Shown here: piece after piece, positions 5,133 to 47,460 of the stretch
Layout: every line of letters starts with the position of its first letter
How positions within the stretch are numbered: the first letter of the stretch is position 1
Sequence record: ON210138.1
Length of the DNA: 64,000 bases
Strand: one strand, 5' to 3'
DNA from: Escherichia phage EC106
Notes under the pieces: model-generated
What the model was told of the DNA's origin: nothing
Seen by the model: only the letters and a program-made list of their open reading frames with translations
The model's database searches: none
Made by a program: the position numbers and the translations under genes

Positions 5133-7124
5133 TCACTCAGTTTCGAATGGGCAGTCATCTGCATCCTCACTTAATACAGGTGGAATCGTTGAGCTTTGAC
5201 GCTGCTCTTCAGTATAGACTTCACCAGTCTCACGGTCAAACACTTCATCCTCATAATGTGGCAAAGAGTCATCATAATGGTCTTCAGCTTCACCAATACC
5301 AAACTGTTGGCGAATATTTTCTGCTGCGCCATCAATGTCAACTCCACAACCAGATGCTTTGATGAGGCGTCCTGTATCTGGATTGTACCAAGTATGACCA
5401 GCAATACCCGTTGACTTACCGTGACGACGACACTTAGTTAACTTGATTTTTGTCAAGTTTTTCTTAACAGGGTCTGGGTCAACCTTGTTACGCATTAACA
5501 GAATGTTGTTCATAGAAATCTGGAAATACGCACCAGAACCTTTAATATCCTCTTCAGAGATATCTCCACCTTCGGAGTTAGCCTTCTGACCACCTGCACT
5601 TTTACGAACGTGACAGACGTTTACCTGTGCATACTGGTAGCGTTTACAACGACGCAATAGCTCAGACAAAACTTCCTCTTCATCCGTATCTGAACGTGAC
5701 AGAGCCAACGTAATAGGGTCAAGAATAATAATCTTACAGTCTAAACTGTTAACAAGATAGTCAACAAATTCCAGCAGGTTATCTTGGTCAATTGCACCTT
5801 GATGGTCAACGATGTGGATACGACGACCTTTAGACAGTTCTGCATGTGCTTCCTTCAATTCATCCCAATCACGTTCGTCATAAGGAATCTCAGAAATCTG
5901 CTTGCTCAGGTGGATTGCACAGAGCATCTCCATCAACTCTTCATATGTATCTTCGACAGGAATTACACCAATATTATAATCAGTTTCTTTCCAAGCAGTG
6001 TAAATCATTTCACGGGTATATGCTGATTTACCTACTGAAGATGGTGCTGCCAGAGTTGTAATCTCACCTAAACCATAACCACCATAAGTCAGTCTGTTCA
6101 AATCTCCGAAAGATTCTGGGAAAGGAATCAATGGAATCTGACCACGATTCTTCATTGCCTCAAAACCATCTGCGAAGTTCTTGATACCAGCAGGACAGTA
6201 ACGAGGTGCATTGTAGATACGCTGCTTAAATCCTTCCAGAACTGTATCTTTCTCTTTATAGAACTTTGTCCACCACTCGTTAAGGTCTTTTACACCCTCT
6301 GGATACTGGAATAAACGAACCTTCTCGATAGGGAGAATGCCAGCAGCCTCTTTAGTGGCTTTAGCACCTGCTTCATCGTTATCAAAGCACAAGTAAATCT
6401 CATCAAATGATGTAATGTACTGATAGTTATCCTTGATAGACTTGATGTTTGCACCTAATGGAACAGATACGTGACAGTAATTTTTACGACGAGACTTGTC
6501 TTTAATCGCAAGAGAAGTCATATAGATTGCTGTCGCACATTCCATCTCACCTTCCCAGATGAATAGACGGTTACCACCTTCTGGAGCAATCCATGAACCG
6601 AACATCGCCAGTTCACCTTTAATGTCTCCAACACCACCTGAGAAGTCTTTTAGCTTACCTCGTAGGTGTTCTTTTGGATGGTCTTCTGGGTAACGGTGAC
6701 GAACACGGTAGCCAACATGTTCTAGCTTGCCATCTTCATTGCGTTTGTAAGTTGGGTAGAAATGTGCGTCAATTTCACCGTCACTGTCAATGTCAACCTT
6801 AATACCCAAACGCTCAAGAACTTTTGCAGGAATCTTCCTGTCCTTTAAGTCCATTGCTTCAAGGTTTTCTTTTACATCACCTAAATCCATTCCACGGAAA
6901 GTACGGTTTTTATTATCTGAACCAGTAGAATAAGTGCTCACGATTTGTCCTTTATCAAAATCCCACTCTGGGAAACCTTTGTTACAGCTAAAGCAAGTCA
7001 TCGAATAAGAATCATCGTCATGGTGGTAGATTGAACCAGCATCTGATGAACCACAACGTGGACATGCACAATGACCAATAAACTGACCAGCCTCTTTCAA
7101 TTTACGACCTTTAGACATTAACAC
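5133..7124 (-). CDS. bifunctional DNA primase-helicase (T7 gp4-like)
   Basis: 663 aa; N-terminal Cys4 zinc finger (CPRCGSS...CFSCNKG), TOPRIM-like FDNDEAG, Walker A GLGEITTLAAPSSVGKS in a DnaB-like helicase half. Confidence 0.85.
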   Translation of the reverse strand: MLMSKGRKLKEAGQFIGHCACPRCGSSDAGSIYHHDDDSYSMTCFSCNKGFPEWDFDKGQIVSTYSTGSDNKNRTFRGMDLGDVKENLEAMDLKDRKIPAKVLERLGIKVDIDSDGEIDAHFYPTYKRNEDGKLEHVGYRVRHRYPEDHPKEHLRGKLKDFSGGVGDIKGELAMFGSWIAPEGGNRLFIWEGEMECATAIYMTSLAIKDKSRRKNYCHVSVPLGANIKSIKDNYQYITSFDEIYLCFDNDEAGAKATKEAAGILPIEKVRLFQYPEGVKDLNEWWTKFYKEKDTVLEGFKQRIYNAPRYCPAGIKNFADGFEAMKNRGQIPLIPFPESFGDLNRLTYGGYGLGEITTLAAPSSVGKSAYTREMIYTAWKETDYNIGVIPVEDTYEELMEMLCAIHLSKQISEIPYDERDWDELKEAHAELSKGRRIHIVDHQGAIDQDNLLEFVDYLVNSLDCKIIILDPITLALSRSDTDEEEVLSELLRRCKRYQYAQVNVCHVRKSAGGQKANSEGGDISEEDIKGSGAYFQISMNNILLMRNKVDPDPVKKNLTKIKLTKCRRHGKSTGIAGHTWYNPDTGRLIKASGCGVDIDGAAENIRQQFGIGEAEDHYDDSLPHYEDEVFDRETGEVYTEEQRQSSTIPPVLSEDADDCPFETE

Positions 7125-9575: not shown

Positions 9576-9606
9576 TATGAGGTTAATGATTTTAGAGGGA
9601 GTAAAA

Positions 9607-11748
9607 ATGGAAAACGTAGATTTTAAAAACTTACATTTGGTTGGTGATACAGAAACTGATGGTTTACTCCTTGAGTTCACTAAAGTGCACGTAATGGCCT
9701 TTGCAGACTATAAATCTGACGATGAAGAGCCACCTGTATGGGTCTTTACAGATGAGCCTATCCTCGGTCACAAGTACACCAAGTACATTAAGGGTGGTTT
9801 ACGTGAAGGTGTTGAGTTTGCGTTAAAGGCAAAACGACTTTGCATCCATAACGGTCTTGGTTATGACTGGTGGGTTTTTAATCACATTGCACCTGATTTA
9901 TGGAACTTTGATAATCCAAAGTGTAAGCCGTGGAGTAATTTCTTTCAGGATTCTCTTATCCAGTCTCGTGTTCAGTGGATGGATAGACCAACTCCAAAGG
10001 GTTATAAAGGTGCTCATGGCTTGGCTGCATGGGGTGCTCGTGTTGGTGTTCGTAAGCCAGAGATTGAGCATTGGGGTGTGTGGAATGCAGAAATCTTCAC
10101 TCGTGTTGTAGAAGATATTCGTATTAACGCCAAAACTAAACGGGCACTTGATAACGAGTATCTCAAGCTTAAGAAGTGTGGTATAGACACTTATGAAACC
10201 TACATGCGAGCTAAAGAAACATCTTTCTGGATGAGTCAACAGGCTATCAATGGTTGGAAAGCTGATAAAGAACTTATGGAGTTCCATGTAAAGGAACTTG
10301 ACAAGTTGACTAATGAGCTTGCTTCAGAGGTTGAACCACATCTACCTCCAACTATTAAGACCAAAGGTAAAGTCACTGGAGAAGAGTTTGCGAAAGCTTG
10401 GAATGAGTATGTTGAAACATTTGGTCATGCAGATGGACTGAAGAGAATTACCAAGTACCCTAAGACAAAGTATCGTCAGCAGGTACGTAATGGTGAGATG
10501 CAGACATACGAAATCAAACCATTTGGTAAGCCAACTACAAAGATTTTTAACATTGGAAAGAGAAATTGCTATACACCAACTAACTCCGTAACTGGTGAAG
10601 AGTACAAGGAAGGCTTTGTAGCAATGAAGGATGCTCGTGCAATTTGCAATGAGTTGAACGCAAAGATTGGTAAGAAATGCAAAGACTGGAAGCCAGTAAA
10701 AACAGTCAAAACTGTGAAGTACTATAACAGCCACGTTGTTAACCACTTTGAACTTGAGTCAAGTCGCTACACAGGTTTGATTGATGCACCATATACACCA
10801 ATTGAGTTTGAAGTTTCTCGTATGACTCAGGTAGCAGTTGTTAAAGATTACTTGAAATCAGTTGGTTGGATTCCAGATGACTGGAATTACAAGAAAGACT
10901 CAGATGGTCGCCCTGTCAAAGTTTGTCGTTTCAAAGACAATAAAAAGATGATTACAAAGCATCCTAAGTGGCAGGAAATGGTTGAGCGGTGTGGTTTGAG
11001 CTATGTTGAGCATGAAGGTGTACAGTACATTGAGCATAACTGGTCTGTGAAGAAGTACACAGATTTGCTTGAGCCTTGTTTAATCCGTACTTCACCAAAA
11101 CTTACTGAATCATCTTACGATACGATTGAAGGTGAACTTGGACAGAAGATTGCGAAGTACTATACTTTGATGCACCGACGCAGAACTATTGAGAACTCAA
11201 AGGACGACGAAAAAGGCTGGTTGAACCAGATTCGTCCAGATGGTCGCCTTAGTGCTGGTGCAATGGTGTTTGGTACTTCAACTGGACGTATGACGCAATA
11301 TGGTATTGTAAACGTACCGTCTGGTGCTGCTGTCTATGGAGCACCTATGAGGGAGGTGTGGATTTGTGAGGAAGGGACTAACGTTGTCTCTGTTGATATG
11401 AACTCAGCCCAGCTAGTTCTTCTTTGTAACTTTATGGGTGATAAAGAGTCCACTAAAGCGGTAACACAAGGTAAAGAAGAGGTTGAGTTCATTCGTCAAG
11501 AAGATGGACGCTATTACTGCAAACACTTTGATGAGTACCTCAACCCAGAGATTGATAAGTACCTTCGCTATGACTCTGAGAATGACCTGTACGTTGTCTA
11601 TTCAGGGACTGATGCACATACACTGAACAGTATCTACTTTAGCTTGAACGATGAGCAGGATATCTTGACTTGTCGAGCTACTCAGGATGAGAATCTTCTT
11701 CATGAGATTAGCAAAGGTCGTAAGAAAGCTAAGAATGGTATCTATGCG
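9607..11748 (+). CDS. DNA polymerase, family A, exon 1 (3'-5' exonuclease and most of polymerase domain)
   Basis: RBS GAGGGAG then ATG at 9607; Exo I motif VGDTETDGL; motif B start KAKNGIY near 11740; frame then runs into intron (in-frame stop at 11788). Exon end approximate (+/-15 nt). Confidence 0.8.
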
Positions 11749-12059
11749 TCAGTGGCGCATGTAAAACGTTGTGAATTGCTGGAAGCCTAAGTCTGTAAAG
11801 ATATGGTAATCAGCAGCGAAGTCTCTGTTAGGACTCCTAAAGCAAATAACATAACTATAGAGATTCCTAACAGAGAAACGTTCAGAGACTATCGAAAAGC
11901 ATACTTAATGTATGAACTGAGTAGAGTAGGGTGGTAAGCTAATGACCATTCCCAAGTGCAACGGTAGTATTACTACTACGTGATATAGTCCGACACTCCG
12001 TAGAAATGCGGAGAAGTTCATAAGAGAACTGGTACACCTTGCGAGTGTATTGACCAGAT
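11749..12059 (+). ncRNA. group I self-splicing intron (no internal ORF) interrupting the DNA polymerase gene
   Basis: Conserved group I core elements in order: P-like AATTGCTGGAAGCC (~11770), Q-like ATGGTAATCAGCAGCG (~11805), R GTTCAGAGACTA (11879-11890), S GATATAGTCCGAC (~11985); polymerase motif B is split across the interruption. Boundaries approximate. Confidence 0.75.
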
Positions 12060-12617
12060 GTATTGTTCGGTGCAGGTGATGAGAAGTTTGCTAAGACGAT
12101 TAAAGCTGCAACTACTCAGGAAGGTGCGCTGACTAAACAGACTTACTTTATACGTTTGCCTAAAATTAAGAAGCTGTTAGATGACTTGGAAGCTGACTAC
12201 AAAGCAACTAAAAAGGCACTTGAAGAGGTGTTTGGTAAGACTGCTGCAATCTCTAAAGGGGGTTTTGTAAAGGTTGCTGGAGCTTGGTTGTGGTGTAAAT
12301 CTCCACATAAGTTATTGAATTATTTGCTCATGGGTTCGGAAAGTCAGATTCAGAACGAGGCAATTAACCTTGCTTGCCGTCGTATGATTGACGAAGGTTT
12401 GATGAAGTTGAACGGTCGTAAACCAGCCATAGGTGCTCGTTTATTGTGCTCCTATCACGACGAGACAAGTTGGGAATGTCCAGAAAGTATGACGGCAGAG
12501 GTGAAGGCTGTCACTGATTGGTATTACGGACAAGCCTCTAAGAACTTAGGGCTAAAGAGTGAAACACTGGTAACTGGTACTGGTAAGGTTGGTAAAAGCT
12601 GGTATGAGGTACATTGA
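12060..12617 (+). CDS. DNA polymerase, family A, exon 2 (motif B end and motif C)
   Basis: Frame opens at 12054; LFGAGDEKFAKTI completes motif B (T7: YGAGDEKIG) and SYHDE is motif C; exon start approximate. Confidence 0.8.
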   Translation, partial: VLFGAGDEKFAKTIKAATTQEGALTKQTYFIRLPKIKKLLDDLEADYKATKKALEEVFGKTAAISKGGFVKVAGAWLWCKSPHKLLNYLLMGSESQIQNEAINLACRRMIDEGLMKLNGRKPAIGARLLCSYHDETSWECPESMTAEVKAVTDWYYGQASKNLGLKSETLVTGTGKVGKSWYEVH

Positions 12618-13129
12618 TGCGAGATTGTGGATTCACACATGAACAGTTAAAGTCTTGGTTAAACTATGACCCCGAAACAGGGGTCTTAACGTGGATTGGC
12701 AGACCTCCACATAGTAGTAGGGTGGTTATTGGGAGCCAAGCCGGAGCAATCAAGCGCACAAGGTCTGGTGTGTATATGCACACACAGATTTTAGGATACA
12801 GGACAGGCAATCACCGAATTGCTTGGTTCTGGATGACAGGTAAGTGGCCTGATAAACACATTGACCATAAAGATGGAGATGGTTTGAATAACGCTTGGGA
12901 CAATCTAAGAGAGGCCACAAAAGAGCAGAACATGTCCAATAGGAGACAACCTAGAACATCAAAAAACTTAAAAGGTACAAGTAGAAGCAAGTCTGGTAAG
13001 TGGATAGCCCAGATTAACCATAATGGCAAGACTATACATATAGGGACATACACAACAGAAGAAGAAGCCCATAAAGCTTACTGTGAAGCTGCTATTAAAC
13101 TCCACGGAGAGTTTGCAAAACTAAGTTGA
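12617..13129 (+). CDS. HNH homing endonuclease with AP2-type DNA-binding domain
   Basis: HNH core GNHRIAWFW...IDHKDGDGLNNAWDNLREATKEQN, C-terminal AP2-like KWIAQINHNGKTIHIGTYTTEEEAHKAY; starts at the stop of polymerase exon 2. Confidence 0.75.
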   Translation: MRDCGFTHEQLKSWLNYDPETGVLTWIGRPPHSSRVVIGSQAGAIKRTRSGVYMHTQILGYRTGNHRIAWFWMTGKWPDKHIDHKDGDGLNNAWDNLREATKEQNMSNRRQPRTSKNLKGTSRSKSGKWIAQINHNGKTIHIGTYTTEEEAHKAYCEAAIKLHGEFAKLS

Positions 13130-43279: not shown

Positions 43280-43355
43280 TGGAGAATCCGAAGGGACTCG
43301 AACCCTTATAAACCTGTTTTGCAGACAGGCACATATCCATTTCTGTCACGGATTC
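43280..43355 (-). tRNA. tRNA-Cys (GCA)
   Basis: 7 bp acceptor gaatccg/cggattc, T-loop GGTTCGAGTCC, loop CTGCAAA, encoded CCA. Confidence 0.75.
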
Positions 43356-43359
43356 AAAT

Positions 43360-43452
43360 TGGAGGAAGATACCAGACTTGAACTGGTACACCGATTTCTC
43401 AGCTACTGGCAGTTTAGCAAACTGCTCCCTTACCTTTTAGGGTTAATCTTCC
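43360..43452 (-). tRNA. tRNA-Ser (GCU), long variable arm
   Basis: Acceptor ggaagat/atcttcc, T-loop GTTCAAGTC, loop TTGCTAA, 93 nt. Confidence 0.7.
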
Positions 43453-43453
43453 A

Positions 43454-44188
43454 TTATTTCTGTAATGCGCTCTTCATTTCTGGTGTTGCAATAGTGTCAA
43501 TTACACCAGTTTTACAGGCATCATCAAACCAGTCTGGTAAGATACCTGCTAAGAACCCATTGATATTCGTTTTAAGGTACTCTGCAATAAGGGCAGCTTC
43601 TTCTTCAATCATCTGCACAACTTCATCTGCATAAGCTGTAATCTTTGAAATACCTTCATTAATTTTACTGACAGCTTGGTTAGCTAAATCAGAAACAGTA
43701 TCAAGACCCTTATCAATAGCGTCTTGTAAGTCACTTAACACACCATTAACACTATCTAGTGTACTGTTAATCGTGTCAATAGCTTTTTGACCATACTCTG
43801 TAGCAACACCCATAATGCCACTGAATGGTGTACAACCAACTTGTTCTCCTGCTGCACCCATAACATTGGAGTATCCCTTTGCTACCTGCATACGTGATGA
43901 AAACTCATCAATAGACTTTTGACCGTAGTCTGTTAGGGTCTTAGTAGTTGCTGTAGTGTTTGTAAGGCTTGTTGTAAAGCTGTTTAGAAGGACTGTTGTA
44001 AGTCCAGCAGCAACAAGCTTCTCCTTCATTGTAGGGTCTGTTACAGAACTAATAGAGCTTACAAGTGATGTAGAGGCAGCTACGGTTCCACCGAGAACTG
44101 CTGCACCAGTAATAAGTGGGTTAGAAAACCCTTTACCGGTTTTTAAGAGATTAAAAATCTCCTTACCTTGTTCTGTCATCTCTTTCAT
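43454..44188 (-). CDS. hypothetical protein embedded in tRNA array (Thr/Ser/Ala-rich)
   Basis: Track ORF 43454-44251 overlaps tRNA-Phe; trimmed to ATG at 44188. Confidence 0.5.
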   Translation of the reverse strand: MKEMTEQGKEIFNLLKTGKGFSNPLITGAAVLGGTVAASTSLVSSISSVTDPTMKEKLVAAGLTTVLLNSFTTSLTNTTATTKTLTDYGQKSIDEFSSRMQVAKGYSNVMGAAGEQVGCTPFSGIMGVATEYGQKAIDTINSTLDSVNGVLSDLQDAIDKGLDTVSDLANQAVSKINEGISKITAYADEVVQMIEEEAALIAEYLKTNINGFLAGILPDWFDDACKTGVIDTIATPEMKSALQK

Positions 44189-44204
44189 TAAGCACCTTTG
44201 AAAT

Positions 44205-44281
44205 TGGTAGTCCAGTGGGATTTGAACCCTCTTCTCATGTTTTTCAGACACGCGCTTTAACCATATAAGCTACTTGGACTA
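44205..44281 (-). tRNA. tRNA-Phe (GAA)
   Basis: T-loop GGGTTCAAATCCC, loop CTGAAAA. Confidence 0.65.
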
Positions 44282-44286
44282 TAAAT

Positions 44287-44362
44287 TGGGGTGACCTACG
44301 GGATTTGAACCCGTATAGACCATGTTCACAGCATGGGTCATTACCTTTTATGATAAGGCCAC
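44287..44362 (-). tRNA. tRNA-His (GUG)
   Basis: T arm acggg-TTCAAAT-cccgt, loop CTGTGAA, extra 5' G. Confidence 0.7.
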
Positions 44363-44393
44363 ATTTAAGGACTCTCGTAAGAACCCTTAGAAG

Positions 44394-44469
44394 TGGCAGC
44401 GGCATAAGGATTTGAACCTTAATAGGACAGCTTCAGAGACTGTTGCATTGCCAGTTATGCTATACCGCT
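44394..44469 (-). tRNA. tRNA-Gln (CUG)
   Basis: D stem gcat/atgc, stem acagt/gctgt, loop CTCTGAA. Confidence 0.6.
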
Positions 44470-44474
44470 AAATT

Positions 44475-44554
44475 TGGTACTCCATATCGGATTCGAACCG
44501 ATACATAACACAGATTTTAAGTCTGGCCTCTCTGCCAATTGGAGTAATGGAGCA
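44475..44554 (-). tRNA. tRNA, anticodon probably UAA (Leu-type) but short variable arm; isotype uncertain
   Basis: Acceptor gctccat/atggagt, T arm atcgg-TTCGAAT-ccgat; anticodon stem imperfect; loop CTTAAAA. Confidence 0.4.
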
Positions 44555-44555
44555 T

Positions 44556-44631
44556 TGGCGGGGGATGTTGGAATTGAACCAACTTCTTCGATTTCAAAGA
44601 CCGAGGTTTTAACCTTGTAAACTAATCCCCT
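44556..44631 (-). tRNA. tRNA-Gln (UUG)
   Basis: Stem tcggt/atcga, loop CTTTGAA, T arm gttgg-TTCAATT-ccaac. Confidence 0.6.
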
Positions 44632-44639
44632 TTAAATCT

Positions 44640-45197
44640 TTACTTTCTCAGTGGATGAATAAAGAATGCCAACATAACTCTTTCCCTTGAGAATGCTCTT
44701 TCTTCTGGGACAACACTTTTTAGTTTCCATCCAACATAAATTCTCCAGTAAAACTGTTTACCAAAGACTTTAATTGATGGGATAAAAGCGAATAACCCCC
44801 AAGCATTACTGTTCCACATTAGGAGATAACCAGTCTGATTATCTTCAGGGTTAGAACTTACGTTGATATTACCTTTCCACTTAGTAACATCTTTTACATC
44901 TCTTCCTAATACATGGTAAGAGAAGTTATAAGCTTTGTTTCTCCAGAGCCATCCAACTCTCTGCATGTAGACACCAAGCTTACCAATCTTTCTAATCTTA
45001 GCCCATCTTTTAACGTGGCCTTCATCACCATCAATCGGGTTGTCATAGGTCTCCATCCATCTGAATCCAAAAGGTAGATGCCCTTTCTTCTCACTGTAGA
45101 ATGGAACTACGAAAGGTGCTAAGATGACTGCTAGGGTTGCTGCAAATGGTTCTAGTAAAGCTAAGAAAATCCATGAAGCATACTTCAAATATCTCAT
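44640..45197 (-). CDS. membrane protein embedded in tRNA array
   Basis: 185 aa; N-terminal hydrophobic segments, Trp-rich. Confidence 0.55.
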   Translation of the reverse strand: MRYLKYASWIFLALLEPFAATLAVILAPFVVPFYSEKKGHLPFGFRWMETYDNPIDGDEGHVKRWAKIRKIGKLGVYMQRVGWLWRNKAYNFSYHVLGRDVKDVTKWKGNINVSSNPEDNQTGYLLMWNSNAWGLFAFIPSIKVFGKQFYWRIYVGWKLKSVVPEERAFSRERVMLAFFIHPLRK

Positions 45198-45216
45198 CTA
45201 AATAGCCTCTTAAAAT

Positions 45217-45294
45217 TGGTGTTCCAAGACGGATTCGAACCGTCACTAATACAAGGTTTGAGCTTGCATCCTCTGCCAATTGGGATACTGGAAC
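45217..45294 (-). tRNA. tRNA with CAA anticodon (Leu-type), short variable arm; isotype uncertain
   Basis: Acceptor gttccag/ttggaac, T arm gacgg-TTCGAAT-ccgtc, loop CTCAAAC. Confidence 0.45.
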
Positions 45295-45295
45295 A

Positions 45296-45370
45296 TGGTA
45301 CTCACTAAAGGACTTGAACCTTTTTCTTCATCTTGTAAGGGTGATGTTTTACCATATAAACTAAGCGAGT
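45296..45370 (-). tRNA. tRNA-Val (UAC)
   Basis: D stem gttt/aaac, loop CTTACAA, T arm aaagg-TTCAAGT-ccttt. Confidence 0.6.
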
Positions 45371-45460
45371 GTGAAAGAGGTCTGAAGTTGTGCCGCTAAC
45401 TCAACTCCGTGGAATTTGTTACGGTCTTCAGTTGACACCAGCGGTCTTTCACTTGACCTC
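45371..45460. ncRNA. tRNA-sized structured element without canonical T-loop (possible degenerate tRNA or small RNA)
   Basis: Closed by perfect 7 bp terminal stem agaggtc/gacctct with internal ctgaag/cttcag helix; fills exactly one tRNA-sized slot. Confidence 0.3.
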
Positions 45461-45465
45461 TGAAT

Positions 45466-45542
45466 TGGTGCTGCTCACAGGACTCGAACCTGCATTTCCA
45501 TCCTTACAAGGGATGTGTAATAGCCAATTATACGAAAGCAGC
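45466..45542 (-). tRNA. tRNA-Thr (UGU)
   Basis: Stem catcc/ggatg, loop CTTGTAA, T arm gcagg-TTCGAGT-cctgt. Confidence 0.7.
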
Positions 45543-45548
45543 ATTATT

Positions 45549-45623
45549 TGGAGCATCCAGAGGGAATCGAACCCTCAACCTCAGTTTGGAAGACTGTAAT
45601 TTTCCCGTTTAAACTATGGATGC
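45549..45623 (-). tRNA. tRNA-Gly (UCC), alternative register would give CCA
   Basis: Perfect acceptor gcatcca/tggatgc, T arm gaggg-TTCGATT-ccctc, loop CTTCCAA. Confidence 0.5.
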
Positions 45624-45629
45624 ACTAAT

Positions 45630-45705
45630 TGGTGGAGTCACTGAGAATTGAACTCAGTTCCCGAGTTTGCAAAACTCGAATTTTAACCATATAAACTATG
45701 ACCCC
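45630..45705 (-). tRNA. tRNA-Ala (UGC)
   Basis: Perfect stem cgagt/actcg, loop TTTGCAA, T arm ctgag-TTCAATT-ctcag. Confidence 0.7.
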
Positions 45706-45710
45706 ATTTT

Positions 45711-45786
45711 TGGTACAGGTGGAGGGAATTGAACCCATCGTCTTACTGATTAAGAGTCAGCCGCATAACCATTTTGCTACACCTGC
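45711..45786 (-). tRNA. tRNA-Lys (CUU)
   Basis: Stem gctga/tcagt, loop CTCTTAA; T arm shared with the UUU Lys copy. Confidence 0.55.
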
Positions 45787-45793
45787 ATTAATT

Positions 45794-45871
45794 TGGTAGG
45801 AGACAAGGGATTCGAACCCTCAAACATCTCGTTCTAAGCGAGATAGGTTTACCAATTACCGTCAATCTCCC
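45794..45871 (-). tRNA. tRNA with UAG anticodon (Leu-type), short variable arm; isotype uncertain
   Basis: Perfect stem tctcg/cgaga, loop CTTAGAA, T-loop GGTTCGAATCC, 5 nt variable loop. Confidence 0.5.
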
Positions 45872-46116
45872 ATTAAATCTTTTTAGAGAACTTCTAAGAA
45901 CCTAAGCAACAAGGTTCCACAACAAGCTGTAATAACCTTAGAAGCCCTCTAAAAAGACCTAAAAAGGTCTTTGCATAGTCTTGTTTAATCCGGTGACTAG
46001 AACCTTTGGAGAGCTTGATATTATCTCTTCTCCGTGACACCTACTAGGTGTTTTATCAGTGTGTACGACAATACACGAGGGATAAACCGAAAATGCGAGC
46101 AAGCATGGACGGTGTA

Positions 46117-46458
46117 TTAAATCTTTAAGCTAAGTTCAGTCTTAGACTTGATATCTTTAGCTTTGTAGATGATGACTTTATCAAGTGGTTCAATGTAAAC
46201 AGCTAAGTAATCAACCTGAGAGTTATCAAAATTCATTATTCTATTTTCATTCTTGTTAGAACGAACTCTTTTCAGTTGCACTCTCCAAAGTTCACCTCTT
46301 TTGACTGATGTTGATTTTACCTCAACAGTCTCAATCAAACCATCTTTGTGAACTAGAAAGTCATACTTTGCATTATCTGTAGCTGGTGAATACACTTCAT
46401 AACCTCTTTTGAGGAAAGCTAATTGTGTAGCAATTTCACCTACTGAACCTTTCTTCAT
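46117..46458 (-). CDS. PD-(D/E)XK-type nuclease-like protein embedded in tRNA array
   Basis: Track ORF overlaps tRNA-Ser; trimmed to ATG at 46458. Motif YDFLVHKDG...ETVEVKS fits the D...(D/E)xK nuclease pattern. Confidence 0.5.
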   Translation of the reverse strand: MKKGSVGEIATQLAFLKRGYEVYSPATDNAKYDFLVHKDGLIETVEVKSTSVKRGELWRVQLKRVRSNKNENRIMNFDNSQVDYLAVYIEPLDKVIIYKAKDIKSKTELSLKI

Positions 46459-46481
46459 AATCACCACCTTAAAAATCATTT

Positions 46482-46568
46482 TGGCAGAGAGTGCAGGAGT
46501 CGAACCCGTACCGTTTCCAGCAGCACCAGTTTTCAAGGCTGGTTGGTCTCCGTTGACCGCCACTCTCT
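46482..46568 (-). tRNA. tRNA-Ser (UGA), long variable arm
   Basis: Perfect acceptor agagagt/actctct, loop CTTGAAA, 87 nt. Confidence 0.65.
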
Positions 46569-46581
46569 CCGAAACAATCTT

Positions 46582-46664
46582 TGGCATGGGACGGAGGAGT
46601 TGAACCCCTTTGAAACGGTTTTGGAGGCCGTTGCTCATGCCTTAGAGTCTTAACATCGTCCCAC
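46582..46664 (-). tRNA. tRNA-Trp (CCA), enlarged D region
   Basis: Acceptor gtgggac/gtcccat, T arm agggg-TTCAACT-cctcc, loop CTCCAAA; 83 nt. Confidence 0.5.
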
Positions 46665-46806
46665 ACTACAATTCGAAGCTTACCGTATTATCTCAACACT
46701 GTAAAGCCCCTTCTCAGATTATTTACATGTTCTGGAAAACATGAGATACAGACCACCTCCTTACACGGAGACCCGATAAGGTCGTCTAAGCAATCTGCTA
46801 ACTATT

Positions 46807-46883
46807 TGGCACACCCTACAGGATTCGAACCTGTAACTAACGATTTAGAAGACCGTTGCTCTATCCAATTGAACTAAGGGTGC
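46807..46883 (-). tRNA. tRNA-Arg (UCU)
   Basis: Stem acggt/atcgt, loop CTTCTAA, T arm tacagg-TTCGAAT-cctgta. Confidence 0.7.
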
Positions 46884-47220
46884 ATTAATCTTTAAAGACT
46901 CTCTTAGAAAGCCCTTAAAGATGCCCACCTTATTAATCATACCGTGGGCTAGTACGCCAAATTCTTTGATGAGGGATTGGAAGACCTCACTGGTGTTTAG
47001 CCTATCAAGCTACTGCCAGAAAAACATTGTCGTTTGCATTTATTTTAAATTTGCAAAATAGACGCTACGCAACGAAAACTATTCAGAATATGTACAACAA
47101 ATTTCCCCACATTGTGTTACGTCTAACGCTCATGTATTGGTGTTTGAATTATACATATGCTGAATCATTTTCAGTTACTATAAAGCGGTCGCATCTCAAT
47201 GTCAACAACTTTATTGAAAT

Positions 47221-47295
47221 TGGTTGTAGGTGAGGGTATCGAACCCTCTTCTAACGGTTATCAGCCGTTTGCATTACCATTTATGCTAACCCACA
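47221..47295 (-). tRNA. tRNA-Ile (GAU)
   Basis: Perfect stem aacgg/ccgtt, loop CTGATAA, T arm gaggg-TTCGATA-ccctc. Confidence 0.75.
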
Positions 47296-47297
47296 AT

Positions 47298-47374
47298 TGG
47301 AGGTTCAGATGGGAATCGAACCCACATTCATAGGGCTTATGAAACCCCTGCATTACCTTATCTGCGACTGAACC
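47298..47374 (-). tRNA. tRNA-Met (CAU)
   Basis: Perfect acceptor ggttcag/ctgaacc, loop TTCATAA, T-loop GGTTCGATTCC. Confidence 0.65.
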
Positions 47375-47378
47375 ATAT

Positions 47379-47454
47379 TGGTAGAAGTGGAGGGATTCGA
47401 ACCCATCGCCTGTCAGATTAAAAGTCTGCCGCATCACCATTCTGCTACACTTCC
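47379..47454 (-). tRNA. tRNA-Lys (UUU)
   Basis: Acceptor ggaagtg/cacttct, loop CTTTTAA, T-loop GGTTCGAATCC. Confidence 0.65.
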
Positions 47455-47460
47455 ATTAAA

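Follow-up and report, generated by a model that had tools for sequence, protein, structure and literature searches.

A group I intron without an endonuclease gene inside the gene for DNA polymerase in a Felix O1-like phage

Results

Organization of the polymerase locus

We analyzed a 64,000-nucleotide (nt) stretch of Escherichia phage EC106 (ON210138.1; here, the window), in which a family A DNA polymerase gene lies in two pieces upstream of a free-standing endonuclease gene (Table 1). The window belongs to Felixounavirus: 263 phage records match its polymerase region, and the best of them, Salmonella phage NJ12, is 94.7% identical. An open reading frame (ORF) at 9577..11790 on the plus strand encodes the N-terminal three quarters of the polymerase, for which relatives carry an annotated start at the ATG that corresponds to 9586 or 9608. 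The second piece matches Pfam DNA_pol_A in its C-terminal part (E 6e-06).

An earlier note on this DNA, made from the sequence alone, had described a polymerase frame that stops at 11790 and reopens at 12054, with motif B divided across the gap. This description is accurate. The frame closes with TAA at 11788-11790 and is open from 12054, after a TGA at 12051-12053; exon 1 carries K-N-G-I-Y-A, a Leu codon is split as T/TA (here and below, a slash within a sequence marks the junction), and exon 2 continues with L-F-G-A-G-D-E-K. Excising 311 nt in silico restores an uninterrupted polymerase gene, collinear with intron-free polymerases and with T7 motif B, whose product reads ...GRKKAKNGIYA-L-LFGAGDEKFAK... 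through motif B and the O-helix. Motif B of T7 DNA polymerase, RDNAKTFIYGFLYGAGDEK, aligns against GRKKAKNGIYALLFGAGDEK of the spliced polymerase, and the split Leu codon is the equivalent of T7 Phe528 in this alignment. Counting from Lys758, we take it to correspond approximately to Leu764 in the O-helix of E. coli Pol I. The spliced ORF has 909 codons from its first ATG and 906 from the start annotated in phage ASO1A; a length of 906 is given for the polymerase of Felix O1, for which one DNA polymerase is described (PMC3185647).

Table 1. Features of the polymerase locus and of the intron within it, in window coordinates
Feature	Position	Strand	Basis
DNA polymerase exon 1 (family A), ending after the first base of a Leu codon	9577..11749	+	ORF list, T7 alignment, intron-free allele
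P1, 7 bp: exon UAUGCGU 11743-11749 with internal guide GCGCAUG 11755-11761	11743..11761	+	Rfam alignment, pair list
Group I intron, subgroup IA type, without endonuclease gene	11750..12060 (311 nt)	+	Rfam; exact-deletion equivalence to ASO1A; pair counts
Candidate P10 guide CAGUG, able to pair with exon 2 UAUUG 12061-12065	11750..11754	+	Pair list
P3 5' strand, pairing with 11957-11963	11767..11773	+	Rfam alignment, pair list
P element AATTGCTGGAA	11774-11784		
P4-P5-P5a domain; P4 is 11777-82 with 11810-15; L5a GUAA	11777..11815	+	Fold, pair counts
Q element AATCAGCAGC	11808-11817		
P6/P6a; 12-bp stem 11822-33 with 11865-76, apical loop 11834-11864	11817..11880	+	Comparison with 780-811-nt variants
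R element GTTCAGAGACTA	11880-11891		
P7 5' strand: G, bulged A11886, GACUA; pairs with 11986-11991; part of R	11885..11891	+	Rfam alignment; invariant
P7.1 (11900-04 with 11910-14) and P7.2 (11929-35 with 11945-53)	11900..11953	+	MFE fold, pair counts
P8 hairpin	11964..11979	+	Compensatory exchange among Felixounavirus copies
S element GATATAGTCCGAC	11982-11994		
P9 with GAAA tetraloop 12003-12006	11996..12013	+	Rfam alignment, pair list
P9.1 (12016-19 with 12026-29), P9.2 (12030-37 with 12045-56) and 3' tail to G12060	12016..12060	+	Fold, pair counts
DNA polymerase exon 2 (rest of motif B, motif C), stop TGA 12615-12617	12061..12617	+	Pfam, T7 alignment
Free-standing HNH-AP2 homing endonuclease gene, ATG overlapping the polymerase stop	12617..13129	+	Pfam HNH_3 1.3e-14, AP2 1.9e-09; PHROG 99

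The insert is a group I intron

The earlier note had read the gap as a group I intron (ORF-less) at 11749-12059 with the P, Q, R, and S core elements in the right order, and had named Infernal with Rfam Intron_gpI as a check. That search returned an RF00028 match on the plus strand at 11738-12013 (62.9 bits, E 1.4e-13, model positions 1-253 of 253; curated gathering threshold, 50 bits), the only non-tRNA Rfam match above threshold within the 64 kb. All four core elements are present in the expected order; R and S occur once each in the 64 kb, with fewer than one chance match expected within 1-2 mismatches. The longest internal ORF encodes 44 amino acids (aa; 11803-11937) and matches no Pfam or PHROG family, in keeping with the "ORF-less" description. 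The Rfam match above the curated threshold, the canonical splice-site hallmarks, and intron-free relatives that amount to an exact 311-nt deletion bear out the group I assignment. The insert therefore stands, but its coordinates were off by one base: the intron occupies 11750-12060, because intron-free ASO1A fixes the insertion point. ASO1A reads ...TATGCAC/TGCTGTTCGG, and the window reads ...TATGCGT, the 311 nt, and then TATTGTTCGG.

Both junctions are defined to the base. The last base of exon 1 is U11749 and the first of exon 2 is U12061, as fixed by the U.G pair of P1, the terminal guanosine, and the intron-free alleles; the intron's 3'-terminal guanosine is G12060, and the boundary in intron-free alleles falls at exactly that base. 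ASO1A and the 18 intron-free IMG/VR loci that were scored are continuous across the insertion point (three more distant loci were not scorable).

Other classes of insert were considered. An intein is ruled out by the closed reading frame, a group II intron finds no Rfam support and is likewise ruled out, and the length of 311 nt together with the ribozyme match makes translational bypass implausible. The 44-aa ORF, which runs across the ribozyme core and is listed as a "hypothetical protein" in the NJ12 and warpig records, is almost certainly not a gene.

Predicted fold and conservation of pairing

From the Rfam alignment and a minimum free energy (MFE) fold, we drew helices P1, P10, P3, P4, P5/P5a, P6/P6a, P7, P7.1, P7.2, P8, P9, P9.1, and P9.2, which include all core helices from P3 to P8, the P3/P7 pseudoknot, and a P7 with its bulged base. 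The 311-nt RNA has an MFE of -86.7 kcal/mol (z = -3.4 versus shuffles). The U11749.G11755 wobble in P1 marks the 5' splice site, and P1 is invariant in 14 copies. The P10 guide is invariant in all copies, so that it offers no covariation test, and P10 is proposed as feasible only. No P2 helix is evident in the five bases (UAAAA, 11762-11766) that separate P1 from P3, and P2 is deleted in the Rfam alignment. The in-frame stop UAA at 11788-90 falls within the P4-P5-P5a domain. Within P5, CCUAAG (11786-91) and UAUGG (11802-06) form a predicted motif that we take to be the canonical 11-nt GAAA-tetraloop receptor, reportedly defined by Costa and Michel in 1995. P7 is presumed to be the guanosine-binding helix. 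P7.1 and P7.2, two additional helices that the MFE fold predicts and that are conserved, lead us to place the intron in subgroup IA.

Conservation within the genus agrees with the drawn fold. Across 14 distinct Felixounavirus copies, 99.8% of the cells for the 89 drawn pairs hold a standard pair, versus 29-45% when the partners are slid. Two pairs, one at the base of P6a and one in P8, show compensatory change (both U-A/C-G), and four more show single changes that preserve a wobble; most helices are uninformative on structure at this level because they are invariant within the genus. Salmonella phage FSL SP-107 carries a 6-nt tandem expansion, TACTAC, that lengthens P8 with pairing kept.

More distant relatives provide further variation. 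A scan of IMG/VR for the R...S pattern found more than 120 loci with related cores, in many unrelated genes; these served to examine covariation but not the insertion site. RNAalifold, run on a plain MAFFT alignment of one Felixounavirus copy and seven related introns from other genes in IMG/VR, recovered P4, P5, P6, P7.2, and P9 unaided, with compensatory changes in 21 of 32 pairs; P7.2 and P9 covary in this set. P3, P7.1, and P8 were misaligned by MAFFT in the distant relatives, and their covariation was read by eye, that of P3 by position only: at the homologous position the P3 strands differ yet are complementary (CGUUGUG with UGCAACG, CCCAUUG with CGGUGGG, and CUGGGUG with CGCCCAG). A per-sequence shuffle test of P3 was powerless.

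The closest ribozyme relatives outside the genus, 80-89% identical over the P3-P5 and P7-P7.1 segments, lie in or beside other genes. Related ribozymes occur in the amidase gene of Staphylococcus phage 6ec, in Erwinia phage MIF8, where the ribozyme lies just downstream of an RNAP2-like gene, and, at 5200-5480 of IMG/VR_UViG_3300000369_000011, in a polymerase-like gene that by eye resembles a single-subunit RNA polymerase.

Three size classes and probable loss of an endonuclease gene

An intron is found at the polymerase site in about 96 of the 263 phage records, in three size classes with identical splice junctions. The smallest (267-268 nt) has only a 12-nt P6 hairpin and includes the 268-nt intron of Meda (62.4 bits in Rfam), whose polymerase is annotated as a joined CDS. 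The 311-nt class comprises nine records, including the window, NJ12, Mushroom, Tf, warpig, garuso, and GEC_vB_NS7/BS. The largest (780-811 nt) carries in the apical loop of P6a an ORF of 160-161 aa that matches Pfam Endonuclease_7 (PF02945, E 6e-20); the 780-nt intron of VpaE1 has a frameshift that leaves 101 aa of this ORF. The long introns, such as those of JH2, EC6, FSL SP-010, and GEC_vB_B1, share the insertion site and ribozyme of the window copy, that of GEC_vB_B1 being 100% identical outside L6a. They differ in length and in the Endonuclease_7 gene within L6a, of which the window keeps the last three codons only. An Rfam gathering search of three ORF-bearing relatives (L002 and phages TL and Yep-phi, the last two discussed below) gave no match, an uninformative outcome, as the alignment to the model is interrupted by the large ORF. 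Fang et al. (2018, PMC6083498) class as intron encoded the Endo VII-type ORFs of three Felixounaviruses, JH2, EC6, and FSL SP-010, along with those of LUZ24, Berlin, and YpP-G.

The window copy encodes no homing endonuclease of its own, having no ORF above 44 aa and no family match. Its P6a loop reads GACTCCTAA/AGCAAATAACATAACTATAGAGATTCC, and the long forms read GACTCCTAAAACAAAGGAG...ORF...GACTACCTAAGCAAATAACATAACTATAGAGATTCC; at 11834-11864 the window loop retains the final endonuclease codons, AGC AAA TAA. The 311-nt form thus looks like the product of a deletion between the near-repeats GACTCCTAA and GACTACCTAA in which the endonuclease gene was lost, the direction of change (loss rather than gain) being judged by parsimony from the retained stop-proximal codons and the flanking repeats. 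All 311-nt copies have one common deletion junction, which points to a single origin.

Mobility of the intron

The intron is present or absent at one polymerase site, and the flanks of some intron-bearing alleles look co-converted. Between the window and GEC_vB_B1 the ribozyme is identical at 280 of 280 positions. Identity is only 73-90% in exon sequence lying up to about 300 nt to either side, and is 96-97% in the part of the polymerase gene further upstream. The Mushroom and Tf introns are likewise 100% identical to that of the window, with mosaic flanks. We conclude that the intron has been mobile at the DNA level, because introns that are 100% identical sit in flanking exons that are in places only 73-90% identical. 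In Meda and GEC_vB_B1 the divergent flanks look like those of a distant lineage without the intron (L154 and L155; polymerase protein 78% identical), the pattern expected if they were co-conversion tracts. In the window the flanks have the native character: they are 92-99% identical to those of intron-free ASO1A, with only four silent differences around the site.

All 15 intron-bearing alleles examined read GCGT/TATTG. Intron-free alleles vary at the site (GCACTGCTG, GCACTACTG, GCACTGTTG, GCGTTGCTG, GCGTTACTG, and GCCCTGTTA). Two intron-free IMG/VR Felixounavirus contigs, L142 and L144, carry GCGTTGCTG and GCGTTACTG, which are 1-2 bases from the intron-bearing exon, GCGTTATTG; each could mark a precise loss of the intron or a site that suited it from the outset.

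The 311-nt form is distributed among Salmonella, E. coli, and Shigella phages that come from several countries; its flanks are mosaic, and the alleles of the adjacent HNH gene differ. It is conceivable, although we hold this only tentatively, that this form is still spreading as a nonautonomous element; one route would be mobilization in trans by the Endo VII-type endonuclease of co-infecting relatives whose intron bears the ORF.

The adjacent HNH-AP2 gene raises the question as to whether its product mobilizes the intron. The HNH-AP2 gene is a separate mobile element, outside the intron. Some relatives lack it, some carry the same gene, and others have in its place an allele about 45% identical, independently of intron state. 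Every HNH allele comes with a particular version of the final ~300 nt of the polymerase gene, and 12311-12600 is only 78% identical between allele types. In one relative, L158, the HNH protein is 95% identical to that of the window and the polymerase protein 71%. Given the overlapping ATG and stop, translation of the HNH-AP2 gene may be coupled to that of the spliced polymerase message.

The intron lies 556 bp upstream of this gene, and an ORF-less intron near a free-standing endonuclease is the arrangement seen in collaborative or trans homing pathways (PMC3984707; PMC2790892). Under such a scheme, the HNH-AP2 enzyme would cut the intron-free polymerase gene at the insertion site and so mobilize the intron. 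We regard this as improbable. The same HNH allele is found in five intron-free loci and one intron-bearing locus, and the 311-nt introns of Mushroom, Tf, and warpig adjoin a different allele. The insertion site itself is unlikely to be the HNH target because intron-free phages with and without the HNH gene share GCACTGCTG. Finally, the sequence that changes together with the HNH allele is confined to ~12311-12617 and does not reach as far as the intron.

Probable splicing of the polymerase message

The proposed pathway is that of a group I intron. The polymerase gene would be transcribed through the intron, and a ribosome entering it would halt at the in-frame UAA (11788-90). The RNA would adopt the P1-P9.2 structure, an external guanosine held in P7 would attack after U11749, and the freed exon 1 would then attack after G12060, joining the exons as GCG-UUA-UUG to give a polymerase of 906-909 aa.

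Several observations suggest that the gene depends on splicing. Without removal of the insert, the reading frame closes 41 nt inside the intron, and exon 2 offers as a start only a TTG at 12063, with no ATG. There is no convincing ribosome-binding site near the start of exon 2, and promoter-like and terminator-like sites are not above chance. Identical copies are carried by phages that entered the records as isolates propagated on laboratory hosts. With a closed frame, an exon 2 devoid of start signals, a break placed within the dNTP-binding helix, and identical or near-identical copies in many isolates, splicing appears to be needed. From these sequence features we infer that the intron is spliced out of the polymerase mRNA, probably independently of proteins. 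The polymerase intron of LUZ24, at a neighboring site, has been demonstrated to splice in vivo (PMC10914365), which by analogy would support splicing here.

The insert might instead be retained, with the enzyme assembled from two separately translated parts, residues 1-737 and a C-terminal piece of 184 aa. Most GenBank Felixounavirus records do list the polymerase as two separate "DNA polymerase" CDSs, and Friedrich et al. (2007) are said to have described phage genes that were broken by endonuclease insertion and kept their function. Here, however, the break separates the Tyr of motif B from its Phe-Gly, within the O-helix; the only start available to exon 2 is TTG 12063, where a ribosome-binding site is lacking nearby and promoter signals do not exceed chance; over its full length the insert matches a catalytic RNA, and its pairing is conserved; and every intron-bearing allele examined has the P1-compatible GCGT exon end. 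We therefore consider a split enzyme highly unlikely. That the ribozyme is an inactive relic and the polymerase a pseudogene in this genome, as the loss of the endonuclease gene, a late stage of the homing cycle, might suggest, is scarcely credible given a 311-nt form that recurs, unchanged or nearly so, in at least eight separately deposited phage isolates of several countries, an invariant catalytic core with few substitutions and pairing preserved, and the description of Felix O1 with one DNA polymerase (PMC3185647).

Taken together, these results make it very probable that the window element is a group I intron interrupting the polymerase gene of a Felix O1-like myophage and that it is a spliced, endonuclease-less remnant of a mobile intron.

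Discussion

The 311-nt element is typical of phage group I introns late in the homing cycle, and nothing here alters the known workings of group I introns. The intron itself is already known: identical copies are in GenBank, partly annotated, and ORF-bearing versions have been published as intron encoded. For annotation, the polymerase should be treated as one spliced gene, although most Felixounavirus genomes list two ORFs, sometimes with a spurious 44-aa protein in addition. In the original description of Felix O1 no introns were reported, and for that isolate this is correct. The genus also presents the life cycle of a homing endonuclease as a series: empty site, intact gene, frameshifted gene, deleted gene, and minimal intron.

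The Felixounavirus site is the third insertion point in a small hot spot at motif B. The polymerase introns of Pseudomonas phages LUZ24 and TL resemble the window intron in being group I introns in motif B of a related family A polymerase. They differ in being inserted 6 nt upstream, in a Tyr codon (ATC T/AT) rather than the Leu codon (GCG T/TA), and their ribozyme is unrelated to the Felixounavirus one beyond universal core elements. The TL intron (L165, 1631-2299) lies at ATC T/AT GCG and is 669 nt long, equal to the published LUZ24 length; Ceyssens et al. reportedly gave the LUZ24 polymerase intron as 669 bp in 2008. The intron of the T7-like Yersinia phages Berlin and Yep-phi likewise interrupts motif B, has an identifiable P1 and terminal G, and carries an Endo VII-type endonuclease. 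It is inserted 11 nt upstream, in a Phe codon (TT/T), and its ribozyme shares the S element and P9.1 region only; in Yep-phi (L166, 1620-2299) it lies at ACG TT/T ATC and is 680 nt long. The TL and Yep-phi introns were mapped by P1 pairing, terminal G, and protein continuity.

One common ribozyme for the three motif B introns was considered and rejected: BLAST of the Felixounavirus ribozyme against TL and Yep-phi gave core elements only. Within 11 nt of motif B, three phage groups thus have three different ribozymes, each at its own insertion point. The Felixounavirus Endo VII-type endonuclease is 52% identical to that of TL (LUZ24-like) and 46% to that of Yersinia phage Yep-phi, its nearest relatives outside the genus. 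This comparison hints that an Endo VII endonuclease lineage may keep its target while changing introns.

Other introns in phage family A polymerase genes, those of SPO1/SP82/Bastille/Pf-WMP3, phiL7, and PhiI/W31, are also of subgroup IA (IA2) but lie at Pol I positions 674, 676, and 881 rather than about 764, and are associated with HNH rather than Endo VII-type endonucleases. A 2012 summary gives the polymerase intron sites of which its authors knew as 674, 676, and 881 in E. coli numbering, with the endonuclease gene in P6a in Pf-WMP3, PhiI, and W31 (PMC3428280). A parallel to the arrangement of defunct intron endonuclease and free-standing HNH gene is the T4 nrdB intron, whose own endonuclease, I-TevIII, is defunct (PMC2790892). 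T4 differs in that mobE demonstrably drags the nrdB intron along, whereas the HNH gene of the window is unlinked to the intron.

Two observations concern the rest of the window. The genome of the Felixounavirus phage SPJ41 is reported to contain two introns (PMC9951933). A permissive Rfam search of the whole window for a second intron gave only tRNAs and subthreshold noise, a search that an ORF-bearing intron could escape; a second Felixounavirus intron may lie elsewhere in the genome, or it may be ORF bearing and have been missed in the 64-kb window. The window also carries 22 tRNA genes above the Rfam threshold, at 43283-48572 on the minus strand, and Felix O1 is reported to have 22 tRNAs.
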